Shown: in pieces, positions 219 to 3,305 of the stretch
How positions within the stretch are numbered: position 1 is the stretch's first letter
Layout of the letters: the number at the start of each line of letters is the position of its first letter
NCBI GenBank assembly: GCA_038896575.1
Contig: JAWACX010000001.1
Location: forward strand, 1 to 31,615
From: Thermoplasmata archaeon
Lineage (GTDB): Archaea; Thermoplasmatota; Thermoplasmata; Lutacidiplasmatales; SKW197
Length of the DNA: 31,615 nucleotides
Reading direction: 5' to 3'
Translations under genes and position numbers: made by a program
Notes under the pieces: model-generated
Seen by the model: only the letters and a program-made list of their open reading frames with translations
Database searches by the model: none
What the model was told of the DNA's origin: nothing

Positions 219-279
219 TGCCGCAATGATGTAAAGTTCATAGCTGAGGGATGATGACTGATGGGCGATCAGAGCGGCA
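219..279 (+). ncRNA. Archaeal box C/D 2'-O-methylation guide sRNA
   Basis: Terminal stem TGCCGC(219-224)/GCGGCA(274-279); C box ATGATGT 226-232; 11-nt guide; D' CTGA 244-247; GGG spacer; C' ATGATGA 251-257; 12-nt guide; variant D box CAGA 270-273. TATA upstream and oligo-T downstream. Confidence 0.8.
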
Positions 280-280
280 A

Positions 281-294
281 TTTTTTCTATTTTT
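281..294 (+). terminator. Oligo-T terminator of the C/D sRNA
   Basis: TTTTTTCTATTTTT starts 2 nt after the 3' stem; archaeal terminators are T-rich tracts. Confidence 0.5.
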
Positions 295-3200
295 CAGAGC
301 GGATGGATATTGGCACCGCAGGAAGGACATGTGGTCAGTCTAGAGGCACAGGCGGGATGGAGAACTGCACCGCAGGAAGGGCACACAAAGGCCTGGTTGA
401 CAATCTCATGTGGTATAGGATAGTTACAGCTTGCGCACTTCACTACAGGCGGCGGTTTTGGCTTTTCTTCCTTCTTCTCCTTTTTCTTCGGTTTTAAGAG
501 GAGAACAAAGTCGTCCCAGTAATCAAGGTATTTCAGAACCACGAAGAGAATTACAAGAATGAGAGGAATCAACAGGAGGAGGTACCAGTAATTGAGATGG
601 ACTGATATGAAGTACGGGGTATCGGAACCTCCAGATGGGGCTCTAGCGACATTGCCTGCCCTGTCCTTGGCCTCTATATAGTACTGAAGGCCATCCAGTG
701 TCACATCGTCTTTCGGGATTCTGGCAGTGTATGTTTCTCCATCGGCGCTGCTCATACTCACCTCTCTGTACGAAGCCCATCCTGGATTTTTGTAGTAGAG
801 TCGGACATCCGCAACTCCGCTTCCATAGTCGGAGACCTTCGCAGAGACAAGGACCTCCTCAGAATACAACCATTCACTGATCTGAGCATGTGTTATCTCT
901 GGTGCCCTCGTATCTATTTTGAAGGAGATATTTTTCTCTTCTTCCTTATTTCCAGCAGTATCCTCAGAGTAGAAGAAAATTTCGTAAGAACCGTCATTAA
1001 ATTGGCGTTCGGAATCATACCTCGCCCAGTTACCTGAAGATCCTATCTTGATCCATGTGACAGAAAGACCTGATGTGTGGTCCTGTGGGAGGAGTTTAAG
1101 CGTCACGCTACTCGTGTACCAATTGTTGCTTCCCATTTTTCCTGAAATGTTGTATTGAGTTGTAGGTGGTGTGGCATCAATTTTGATGGTCATAGAATGG
1201 ACTTCCTCAATATTTCCTGCAGCATCAACCGCACGATATTCTAGAGTTATGATACCATCTGTGGAAAGGTAGATTTCCTCGGAATATATCTGCCAGTCAT
1301 AGCCCTCACCGAACCTGTATGCAATTTCTCCAATGCCTGAGATATCATCTTCTGCACTGAGATTCACCCAGACATTGGACTTATACCATTCATATTTCCC
1401 CAACTCTCCTTTAAGTTTTGCAGTTGAAACTGGCTTCTGGATATCCATTTTTATTTCTGTTGAGTTAGCAGTGATAAGACCTGCACCGTTTTTCACCTGG
1501 TATTCAAAAGTGTGAATTCCTGGTGAAATTTTCACTCCACCTGTGTAATTCTCCCAGTTCCCATCATCAATTCTATACCTAATTTGGGAGATTCCTGAGA
1601 GGTCGGTAGAATTTATCTCAACCGTGGTGTTTGAATTGTACCAGCCACTGTATGAAAGGTTGCCAATAATTTTTAATTCCACCTCTGGCGGCGTAAGGTC
1701 TATTTTTACGGTAGTGTTCCTGATTACCTCGTTTATGCCAGCATTGTCCACAGAGTAATACTCAAGGTAGTAAATTCCTTCATCAGAGAGAACAAACTCC
1801 TGTGTGTATAGTGTCCAGGTATCTGAGGAGTTTAATCTGTAGTAGGTTTCCGAAATACCTGAACCTGCGTCATTCGTGAGAAGTTTTACAGTTACTTCTG
1901 ACACAAACCATCCAGGCTCTGCAGAGGTGCCTGTGAGCATACATGTGGTATTCGGAGCGGTTTTGTCAATCTTGAAACTTATGCTTTTGATATTTTCTGT
2001 TCTCCCTGCAAAGTCAACAGAATAGAACTCAACAGTGTAGTAGGAATCGTTTGAATAGGTAAGAGGAGATGTATAGAGGGACCATTGAACTGAGGTATTG
2101 AGTTTGAAGTATGTTTTGTTCACCCCTGATGCAGAATCAGAAGGTTGGAGCGTAAGTGTAACAGGTGAGACATACCACTCATTTGCACCGATTGTTCCTG
2201 TGAGATAGGCTTCTGTGTTAGGTGATAGGAGGTCAATCTTTACTACCACGCTTTTTGTGGCTTCTGTGTTCCCTACCTTATCCACAGCGTAGTAGCTTAT
2301 GTTGTAAACATCCTCTGAGGAGAGCGAGAGATTACCTGTATACTCCTGCCAAGCCCCACTGTTTATCCTGTAGTAAATTTTATCCACACCCCTCCCTGAA
2401 TCTGTTGCAGAGAGGTTGAGAGTGACTGGTGAGGTGTACCATCCATTCGCACCCTGCGTGCCAACAACTGTTGCAGTGGTAACAGGTGGAGTGGTATCAA
2501 TGAAATATGTCACCTCAATCTTTGGCCAGTATTGCTGGATACCACAGTCAGAAGAATAAAAGTATTTTCCGCTTCCCCAGTTTGTCTGGAGTGCTAGCCC
2601 ATAGTTTGGAGAGAGCCCATAAACCCATTCCCTGAAAACAGATGTGATGTTCCAGGAATACCAGATTGCTGCTCCACCTACATTTGCAGAAGCAACAGGT
2701 GTCCCGTCATAGTCCGTTCCATTACCCATCCCCGGACTCTGCCAGTTATTACTTGCGTCTCTCACATACCATGTGGCCCCAGGTGACTGTGTCCCATTTC
2801 CATATCCTTCCTCCCAGGACCGCAGCATCTTGTATGCACCTATGGTAGCAGTGTAGCTGGGATCTTCCACATAATAGCAGTAGAGCTTGAGAGTTGCCGA
2901 AGTAATCACGCTTCCAGAGGGCATTGAAATCGGGAAATTGAGGAGAACCTTTTCTGGATTGGTGCCATTTACCTTCAGGGTAGTGTTGATTCCATAGTTG
3001 AGGGTTGGGTTGGAAGCCGAGATATAGGTGTCCTCCATGTCTGCTGGTGTCGGTTGAATCACCATAGAATCCCTTGGTGAATCTGGCAGTAATTTTTCAG
3101 TTGGAATTTCGTAGCAAGTTGAACACGAGGAAAAATGAAGCATGTTTCCGGCAAAGAGAGCACAAATCAGAAATGCCACCAGATACCTTCCCACTTTCAT
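294..3200 (-). CDS. Large cell-surface glycoprotein: signal peptide, DNRLRE-like domain, 6+1 Ig-like (OmpL47-type) repeats, single TM helix, cytoplasmic C4HC3 zinc finger
   Basis: N-terminal MKVGRYLVAFLICALFAG signal; DTYIS..NPTLNYG...SATLKLY (DNRLRE-type) motif; repeats D..pP.T...G..G.n.WY.S.V...L...D..SG; many N-x-S/T sequons; TM YWYLLLLIPLILVILFVVL; tail C-x2-C-x14-C-x2-C-x4-H-x2-C-x6-C-x2-C. ATG at 3200 is preceded by a GGTGA SD (the ORF track starts at GTG 3209). Confidence 0.85.
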   Translation of the reverse strand: MKVGRYLVAFLICALFAGNMLHFSSCSTCYEIPTEKLLPDSPRDSMVIQPTPADMEDTYISASNPTLNYGINTTLKVNGTNPEKVLLNFPISMPSGSVITSATLKLYCYYVEDPSYTATIGAYKMLRSWEEGYGNGTQSPGATWYVRDASNNWQSPGMGNGTDYDGTPVASANVGGAAIWYSWNITSVFREWVYGLSPNYGLALQTNWGSGKYFYSSDCGIQQYWPKIEVTYFIDTTPPVTTATVVGTQGANGWYTSPVTLNLSATDSGRGVDKIYYRINSGAWQEYTGNLSLSSEDVYNISYYAVDKVGNTEATKSVVVKIDLLSPNTEAYLTGTIGANEWYVSPVTLTLQPSDSASGVNKTYFKLNTSVQWSLYTSPLTYSNDSYYTVEFYSVDFAGRTENIKSISFKIDKTAPNTTCMLTGTSAEPGWFVSEVTVKLLTNDAGSGISETYYRLNSSDTWTLYTQEFVLSDEGIYYLEYYSVDNAGINEVIRNTTVKIDLTPPEVELKIIGNLSYSGWYNSNTTVEINSTDLSGISQIRYRIDDGNWENYTGGVKISPGIHTFEYQVKNGAGLITANSTEIKMDIQKPVSTAKLKGELGKYEWYKSNVWVNLSAEDDISGIGEIAYRFGEGYDWQIYSEEIYLSTDGIITLEYRAVDAAGNIEEVHSMTIKIDATPPTTQYNISGKMGSNNWYTSSVTLKLLPQDHTSGLSVTWIKIGSSGNWARYDSERQFNDGSYEIFFYSEDTAGNKEEEKNISFKIDTRAPEITHAQISEWLYSEEVLVSAKVSDYGSGVADVRLYYKNPGWASYREVSMSSADGETYTARIPKDDVTLDGLQYYIEAKDRAGNVARAPSGGSDTPYFISVHLNYWYLLLLIPLILVILFVVLKYLDYWDDFVLLLKPKKKEKKEEKPKPPPVVKCASCNYPIPHEIVNQAFVCPSCGAVLHPACASRLTTCPSCGANIHPL
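915..2498 (-). repeat. Six tandem ~88-aa Ig-like protein repeats within the surface protein
   Basis: Units begin DTTPP, DLLSP, DKTAP, DLTPP, DIQKP, DATPP. 1584 nt = 528 aa = 6 x 88 on average. Conserved W-Y/F, SG and W..Y, with a D..G motif in most units. Diverged at the DNA level. Confidence 0.85.
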
Positions 3201-3305
3201 TTTCTTCACCTTTTTTCAGATGTTTGTTTTCCTCTCCCTAAATATCTAAATGGTATATATATTTTTATTACCACCAACCCGATGCCACTTTCTCAATCCT
3301 TTCCC

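Follow-up and report, generated by a model that had tools for sequence, protein, structure and literature searches.

A box C/D sRNA gene in a hot-spring Thermoplasmatota genome, with a pan-archaeal guide predicted to target rRNA

Structure and genomic context

Positions 219-279 on the + strand of the window (here, the whole 31,615-nt stretch of DNA that was analysed) almost certainly hold a genuine box C/D sRNA gene without prior annotation, with an RNA length of ~61 nt predicted from the span of the locus. The source genome is a hot-spring Thermoplasmatota MAG of 1.77 Mb in 244 contigs, 81% complete. An earlier note on this DNA had placed a box C/D layout at these positions, and it is confirmed here from the sequence and by a strict box grammar, which picked out two loci in the whole assembly and no locus in its reversed-sequence control. 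The elements of the locus are listed below, with G000 as the genome of the window and G001 and G003 as two of its congeners; guide positions are given as N+1, N+2 and so on, counted upstream from the box.

186-198 (conserved core 189-197), + strand: promoter, with a BRE-like purine run and a TATA element; core CTATTTATC kept in G000, G001 and G003, flanks divergent
219-224, + strand: 5' strand of the terminal stem, UGCCGC, which pairs with 274-279
226-232, + strand: C box AUGAUGU, of the same sequence in G001 and G003, aligning to the C box of the Rfam archaeal C/D models
233-243, + strand: D' guide AAAGUUCAUAG, 11 nt, orphan or decayed, different in G001 and G003
244-247, + strand: D' box CUGA, conserved in G001 and G003
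248-250, + strand: D'-C' linker (K-loop) GGG, 3 nt, of conserved length and variable sequence (GGG, ATT, TCT)
251-257, + strand: C' box AUGAUGA, with GAUGA invariant in all four genomes of the genus
258-269, + strand: D guide CUGAUGGGCGAU, 12 nt, with the core UGAUGGGCGA at N+11 to N+2, invariant in the four congeners
270-273, + strand: variant D box CAGA, invariant in the four congeners
274-279, + strand: 3' strand of the terminal stem, GCGGCA, complementary to 219-224 and invariant in the four congeners
281-286, + strand: oligo-T terminator T6, present as a run of 5-6 T in all four genomes

The TATA core (189-197) has its centre ~26 nt upstream of position 219, and both the TATA box and the oligo-T tail that had been described earlier were found to be conserved in congeners. 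The 6-bp terminal stem was recovered by ViennaRNA fold prediction. The geometry of the C/D K-turn is textbook: A225, A226 and U227 make up the 3-nt bulge, followed by the sheared pairs G228-A273 and A229-G272, a U230-A271 pair replacing U-U, and G231-C270. The spacers are 11 nt (D' guide) and 12 nt (D guide) long, a layout kept in G001 and G003. As had been stated before, the gap around 219-279 contains no credible ORF that covers the locus; its sole neighbour of any size is a convergent gene for a 971-aa protein with Ig-like domains, whose stop at 294 lies 8 nt beyond the T6 tract (281-286).

At the gathering thresholds, Rfam gave no match to the locus. In E-value mode, the best match was snoPyro_CD (RF00095) with 21.5 bits (E = 0.023, cut-off 45), and nearly all of the sub-threshold matches over the locus were to C/D box families. 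The box layout and length are shared with snoPyro_CD (RF00095), sR1, sR2 and sR3, and their sub-threshold scores of 17.7-21.5 bits fall so far below the gathering cut-offs of 41-45 that the locus is not annotated by the current Rfam models.

Conservation within the genus

The locus was found in three congeners, having the full layout in G001 and G003 and only the 3' half in the third, G002, where the end of an unrelated ORF takes the place of the 5' half; the RNA may therefore be dispensable. In the alignment, G001 and G003 keep the TATA core, the 5' strand of the stem and the C and D' boxes, and 27 consecutive columns, which include the GAUGA of the C' box, the D guide, CAGA and the 3' stem strand, are identical in the four genomes. 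In the same alignment, the D' guide is different in each congeneric species and the flanks are divergent. A strain in a second metagenome carries A233G within the D' guide, with the D guide unchanged. Conservation of the boxes in related genomes had been named as a test of the locus in the earlier note, and the boxes, the stem, the TATA element and the T-tract are indeed kept in G001 and G003. On the aligned genomes, this pattern marks selection that acts only on the boxes, the stem and a single guide.

Complementarity of the D guide to rRNA

The target regions of the organism's own rRNA are unassembled, with the 16S absent from the assembly and the 23S ending before H92 and the 2069 region, so the pairing was computed on the rRNA of the congeners. 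Against ACCGCCCGUCAA of the 16S rRNA (natural target segment ..ACCGCCCGUCA..), the D guide forms a duplex of 9 bp with an A-C mismatch at N+2 and a G-U pair at N+8, and N+5 falls on C1402, which agrees in the 16S of three congeners with the pairing that the earlier note had proposed. Against UUCGCCCAUUAA of the 23S rRNA, the same guide forms 10 contiguous pairs (N+2 to N+11, with G-U at N+10), and N+5 falls on C2558. This site is part of the A-loop stem: it occupies U2554 to A2565 in the 3' strand of helix 92. The numbers were taken from the E. coli line in the alignment of Dennis et al., to which the segment compares without gaps, and from the published A-loop numbering. Use of the 23S site requires the opening of helix 92.

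The duplex energies are -17.6 kcal/mol for 16S vs. -17.0 kcal/mol for 23S, the guide being energetically neutral between the sites. The guide duplex with rRNA, by which the earlier note proposed to check its reading, was thus recovered on the congeners' rRNA with 9 bp (16S) and 10 bp (23S), but the complementarity alone is non-significant: among shuffled guides searched against rRNA and tRNA, the 23S score was reached in 14% of the trials and the 16S score in ~50%. Because neither match is significant by itself, the argument for the target must be comparative. No tRNA target of the D guide scored above 7. Counting the antisense of the gene itself, the genome has three occurrences of the perfect complement, TCGCCCATCA, against 3.4 expected by chance, and in the 81% of the genome that is assembled no hidden perfect target came to light. 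Another 16S site, GCGGCCUAUCAG, was rejected because N+2 and N+3, beside the methylation site, are mismatched. A search with an H92 pattern in five MAGs of other phyla gave no match, the pattern being too strict or the rRNA missing.

Distribution of the guide and comparison with known guide RNAs

The core of the D guide, UGAUGGGCGA, is a pan-archaeal guide, of which the window holds the local copy. The family pattern, which joins box, guide and D box (TGATGA, N, TRAYGGGCGR, N, CWGA), was found in 57 of the 401 genomes of the window's phylum, with 0 in the reversed control, and in more than 120 contigs that include Archaeoglobi, Methanobacteriales, Thermoplasmata, Methanomassiliicoccales, Altiarchaeota, Hydrothermarchaeales and DPANN groups. 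The core UGAUGGGCGA is present in 121 of the 143 unique parsed copies of the family. In 109 of 114 copies with the guide in the D slot, the terminal stem has 4 bp or more, with 57 different stem sequences, and the terminal stems covary across the guide family. In the phylum to which a Methanobacterium MAG belongs, 71 genomes were sampled; every one has a single copy, its core invariant, with variation at N+1 and N+12 only. A phylum scan with N allowed at N+2, N+8 and N+10 returned the same 58 copies, in which N+2 is A (54 copies) or G (4 copies) and never a pyrimidine, and N+1 takes all four bases. By these counts, the guide ranks with the best conserved of the box C/D guides that this analysis could trace across Archaea.

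Like the locus in the window, sR26 of P. furiosus (PMC4836650, PMC7089733) has the C-D'-C'-D layout with a terminal stem and the identical 10-nt core UGAUGGGCGA, with spacers of 12 nt. It has the core guide in the D' slot, a partner guide matching the 3' end of the 16S rRNA and CUGA, whereas the window has it in the D slot, beside an orphan partner and with CAGA as the D box. sR26 is the standard in vitro model guide, assayed so far only with an artificial, perfectly complementary substrate, and its natural target is not stated in PMC4836650 or PMC7089733. The RNA-seq-supported sR114 of M. kandleri and sR122 of S. acidocaldarius (PMC4644070 supplement) carry GAUGGGCGG guides in the same register to the box. 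They differ from the window by a G at N+2 that pairs with C1399 of the 16S, by the D' slot and by their D' boxes, CCGA and UUGA; judged by this base, they are the 16S-optimised form of the guide and the window has the A-at-N+2 form. The sR64 of M. kandleri (D guide AUAGUGGGCGAG) and the UAAUGGGCGA guides of the Thermoplasmatota genus g55 share the 3' part GGGCGA and the register of the window, and they too match the 3' strand of helix 92, with N+5 on C2558. These guides favour 23S over 16S by 4-5.5 kcal/mol and are specialised for it, whereas the window's guide is neutral.

Outside Archaea, snR70/SNORD43 (U43) and RsmI place a 2'-O-methyl group on the same decoding-site cytidine (yeast Cm1639, human Cm1703 and E. 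coli Cm1402). The snR70/SNORD43 RNAs are, in contrast with the sRNA of the window, longer and nucleolar, without detectable homology outside the guide (the Rfam SNORD43 model matches the window weakly, with 13.5 bits), and RsmI is a stand-alone protein enzyme.

Variant D box and D' guide

The CAGA D box had been pointed out before, and it proved to be real and conserved throughout the genus. It is also specific to the genus, all genuine copies of the guide family outside having CUGA. Two other CAGA matches outside the genus were discarded as not being sRNAs. CAGA keeps the GA of the sheared pairs, and its A is able to pair with U230 of the C box, in line with what had been suggested for it. 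CAGA D boxes have a precedent in Sulfolobus, where Sac-sR14 and Sac-sR120 are abundantly expressed by read counts (Dennis et al. 2015, PMC4644070).

In a sister family of the same order (f2), the D box is CUGA and the D' guide ends in ..AGAACCAG, complementary to 23S CUGGUUC. It follows that the genus inherited a double guide; its D box became fixed as CAGA through a U-to-A change, and its D' guide decayed. The D' guide of the window is, on this comparison, an orphan that has lost the ancestral 23S complement. Searched against rRNA and tRNA, it has no target better than those of shuffled guides; its best match consists of 10 bp in a 48-nt insert of the 16S of G001 and G002, equalled by 31 of 300 shuffles. 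The D' guide of G001 itself has no match at the 48-nt insert, and the 16S is missing in G000.

Candidate methylation sites and alternative explanations

The D guide most likely directs the methylation of the decoding-site cytidine C1402 of the 16S rRNA. The guides of Methanomethylophilaceae and two other families read UGACGGGCGA, with which the U-G pair at N+8 becomes C-G and the pairing on 16S is perfected; the same base gives a C-A mismatch on 23S, although the H92 of these organisms is unchanged. Sac-sR122 has a C at N+11, which fits the crenarchaeal G1408 and not the 23S A2564. The G at N+10, invariant in 71 of 71 genomes, fits 16S C1407, and the 23S of the same set has U there, with which A would make a Watson-Crick pair. 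The partner guide of sR26 is the complement of the 16S 3' end. Finally, Cm1369 of P. abyssi is tabulated in a 2024 review, from Gaspin et al. 2000, as the equivalent of E. coli Cm1402, yeast Cm1639 and human Cm1703, and sR26 would be the guide behind this methylation. As the D guide is a conserved decoding-site guide, the main inference of the earlier note stands.

The chances are about even that the D guide also serves C2558 of the 23S rRNA, in helix 92 beside the A-loop. The invariant A at N+2 is unexplained by 16S C1399 (A-C) and explained by 23S U2555, its only pairing partner at the two sites, and the longest uninterrupted duplex, exactly N+2 to N+11, is the one on 23S. In several lineages, the partner guides also point to this part of the 23S: those of Altiarchaeota and DPANN are complementary to GGUUGUUCGC, with N+5 on U2552 of the same hairpin, and others match ~2505-2520 and ~2575. 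The D' guide of the sister family is likewise aimed at 23S, and Dennis et al. (PMC4644070) place two labels of M. kandleri sR64 in this block of the 23S. The same observations could be taken to mean that the RNA is an LSU-only guide that methylates C2558, its match to C1402 being a coincidence of similar C-rich conserved segments. Such exclusive use of 23S is unlikely, as it leaves unexplained the G kept at N+10 opposite U, the variants with C at N+8 and the C at N+11 of Sac-sR122, and it does not agree with the 16S-directed partner of sR26 nor with the listing of P. abyssi Cm1369. In the literature, no experimental report was found of Cm at the equivalent of C2558, and the 23S of H. marismortui and H. 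volcanii carries Gm1950, Um2587 and Gm2588 only. Dennis et al. 2015 (PMC4644070) give no label for Sac-sR122 or Mka-sR114 at C1402 or C2558.

The positions that stay invariant suggest that one guide is under constraint from two rRNA targets, one in each subunit. A bispecific guide serving both 16S C1402, at the decoding and P site, and 23S C2558, in the A-loop helix, one functional-centre cytidine per subunit, is a plausible reading, held at somewhat less than even probability. It would depend on U at N+8 and G at N+10, the only bases that could pair with both alternatives (A or G at the first, U or C at the second). Such bispecificity would explain the ten positions that are invariant across phyla next to the drifting N+1 and N+12. 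It would also explain the lineages with two guides, which carry one optimised for each site, as in genus g55 (UAAUGGGCGA and UGAUGGGCGG) and in M. kandleri (sR64 and sR114); these site-specialised guides prefer their own site by 3.5 to 5.5 kcal/mol. Lineages with a single guide and a change at N+8 or N+10 would, by the same reasoning, have become specific for one site. A search of the literature found no description of one guide serving both 16S and 23S.

Two other explanations take the D' guide or the variant D box as their starting point. According to the earlier note, the RNA would be a double guide, with the D guide on 16S C1402 and the D' guide on the equivalent of 23S G2069 through a bulged duplex. 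The half concerning the D guide agrees with the 16S pairing, the core of sR26 and the listing of Cm1369, and for the other half a 9-bp duplex of GUAAAGUUC with 23S GGAGCUUUAC (-11.4 kcal/mol) can be drawn. However, this duplex is limited to N+5 to N+13 and extends into the nucleotides of the C box, leaving N+1 to N+4 unpaired and N+5 opposite G2070 at the end of the helix. The 23S of the genus reads CCCCGUGGAGCUUUAC and not the CUAUGGAGCUUUAC given in the earlier note, lacking the CUAUGG on which the proposal relied. The D' guide varies among congeners and even between strains, those of G001 and G003 being unrelated in sequence and without a match at the site, and shuffled guides score equally well, all of which makes the G2069 assignment very improbable. 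Somewhat less remote, and still improbable, is that the RNA is a decaying or non-methylating relic, or a transient chaperone of rRNA folding, whose conservation reflects the short divergence within the genus. The non-consensus D box, the lost target of the D' guide and the retention of the 3' half alone in G002 are compatible with it, as is the lower in vitro activity reported for M. jannaschii sR8 with one box pair mutated. Short divergence does not fit the contrast within the alignment, where the D' guide, linker and flanks have changed and an unbroken block of 27 positions, reaching from the C' box to the 3' stem, is invariant; moreover, the promoter and the terminator are kept, CAGA retains the GA pairs with a possible U-A in place of U-U, and the Sulfolobus sRNAs with CAGA (Sac-sR14 and Sac-sR120) are abundantly expressed.

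C/D machinery and proposed mode of action

The genome encodes fibrillarin (partial, cut by a contig end, 91 bits) and L7Ae (55.7 bits). Nop5 was not found in the 81%-complete assembly; it is present in the three congeners, adjoining the 16S gene, in a region that is unassembled here. Taken together, the locus is probably an independently transcribed C/D sRNA of ~61 nt, with a D guide acting on C1402, and perhaps on C2558, and an orphan D' guide. Among RNA data sets, no run was found to contain the stretch, and the one metatranscriptome from the same study as the genome gave no match to it. As inferred from the sequence, transcription would be followed by RNP assembly, in which L7Ae would bind the terminal C/D K-turn and the internal C'/D' K-loop, and Nop5 and fibrillarin would then assemble on the sRNA. 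The 12-nt D guide would pair with the rRNA, and fibrillarin would 2'-O-methylate the nucleotide facing the fifth guide base upstream of box D, at either of the two sites.

The locus itself is of small importance, adding a guide RNA without annotation to a hot-spring Thermoplasmatota MAG and one more copy to an already known archaeal C/D guide type. The guide would link the archaeal methylation of C1402 with bacterial RsmI and eukaryotic snR70/U43. Points of added interest are the genus-specific CAGA, the decay of one half of an ancestral double guide and the hypothesis of a bispecific guide enabled by wobble pairing.

The second locus returned by the strict grammar, at positions 304-352 of contig C98, is another C/D sRNA with textbook targets. 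Its D guide makes 12 of 12 pairs with the intron-containing tRNA-Met, with N+5 on C34, and an sRNA for Cm34 of tRNA-Met is documented in H. volcanii. Its D' guide pairs with 23S ..AUGACCCUCUU.., with N+5 on the equivalent of C1920 (by the authors' own count). With targets so well understood, this sRNA indicates that the C/D system of the lineage is small but functional. It keeps only a handful of guides, directed at central positions: 23S C1920, C34 of tRNA-Met, and the decoding centre and/or the A-loop helix.

Surroundings of the sRNA gene

The predicted box C/D sRNA gene (219-279) lies between a repeat at the start of the contig and a convergent protein-coding gene:

window 294-3209, - strand: gene for a 971-aa protein, convergent to the sRNA

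This presumed surface protein carries several bacterial-type Ig-like domains (Big_13, Big_7, and Big_3_2). The stop codon of its gene is separated from the T-run of the sRNA (281-286) by 8 nt, an arrangement also present in the congener genomes. On the other side, positions 1-162 of the window correspond to a multi-copy repeat, with at least eight long copies at 88-96% identity as well as end fragments elsewhere in the assembly of this genome (G000), and metagenome contigs branch at about 106-162 of the window. The repeat probably represents the terminal part of an IS-like element, the insertion lying some 25 nt upstream of the sRNA promoter, and probably also explains why the contig stops at this point.

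In the congener G002 (locus L004:1501-1743), the sRNA gene is reduced to its 3' half, which is identical in sequence and keeps the GAUGA of the C' box, the D guide, the CAGA box, the stem strand, and the T-run. In place of the 5' half stands the terminal part of an unrelated ORF, the stop codon of which lies inside the C' box; a synteny breakpoint is located within the sRNA gene in G002. A strain in a second hot-spring metagenome from the same study differs by A233G, which falls in the D' guide, and by C300T, with the remaining sRNA being identical.

A second C/D sRNA and the C/D machinery

The genome also encodes a second box C/D sRNA, of canonical type, outside the window:

G000 contig C98:304-352, + strand: further box C/D sRNA, canonical

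The D guide of this sRNA, GCCCUAUGAGUU, forms pairs at 12 of 12 positions with an intron-containing tRNA-Met on contig C6, placing N+5 at C34, and the duplex spans the exon-intron junction of this tRNA. The D' guide pairs with the 23S segment AUGACCCUCUU, which puts N+5 at about C1920. The tRNA-Met guide and the UGAUGGGCGA guide, the pan-archaeal family to which the D guide of the window sRNA belongs, are combined within a single sRNA in Methanobacteriales and Hydrothermarchaeales.

As for the C/D machinery, the nop5 gene of all three congeners (L172-L174) lies no more than about 1.1 kb from their 16S gene; both genes are missing from the G000 assembly, in which the fibrillarin gene (C88:6792-7088) is cut by a contig end.

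Inserts in the rRNA genes of congeners

The 16S genes of G001 (L009) and G002 (L010) contain a 48-nt insert between GUGCC and AGCCGCCGCGGUAA, and a second one, of 72 nt, between GGAUUAGAU and ACCC, both at universally conserved functional sites; the G003 16S has neither. They resemble small rRNA introns, the exon GUGCC being able to form pairs with GGCAC at the insert end. The D' guide of the window sRNA has a 10-bp match inside the 48-nt insert, equalled by 31 of 300 shuffled guides. The 23S of G002 (L013) exceeds those of G001 and G003 in length by about 115 nt and diverges directly after GACCCUCUU, in the H69-H71 region, which suggests an insert or intron at this conserved site.
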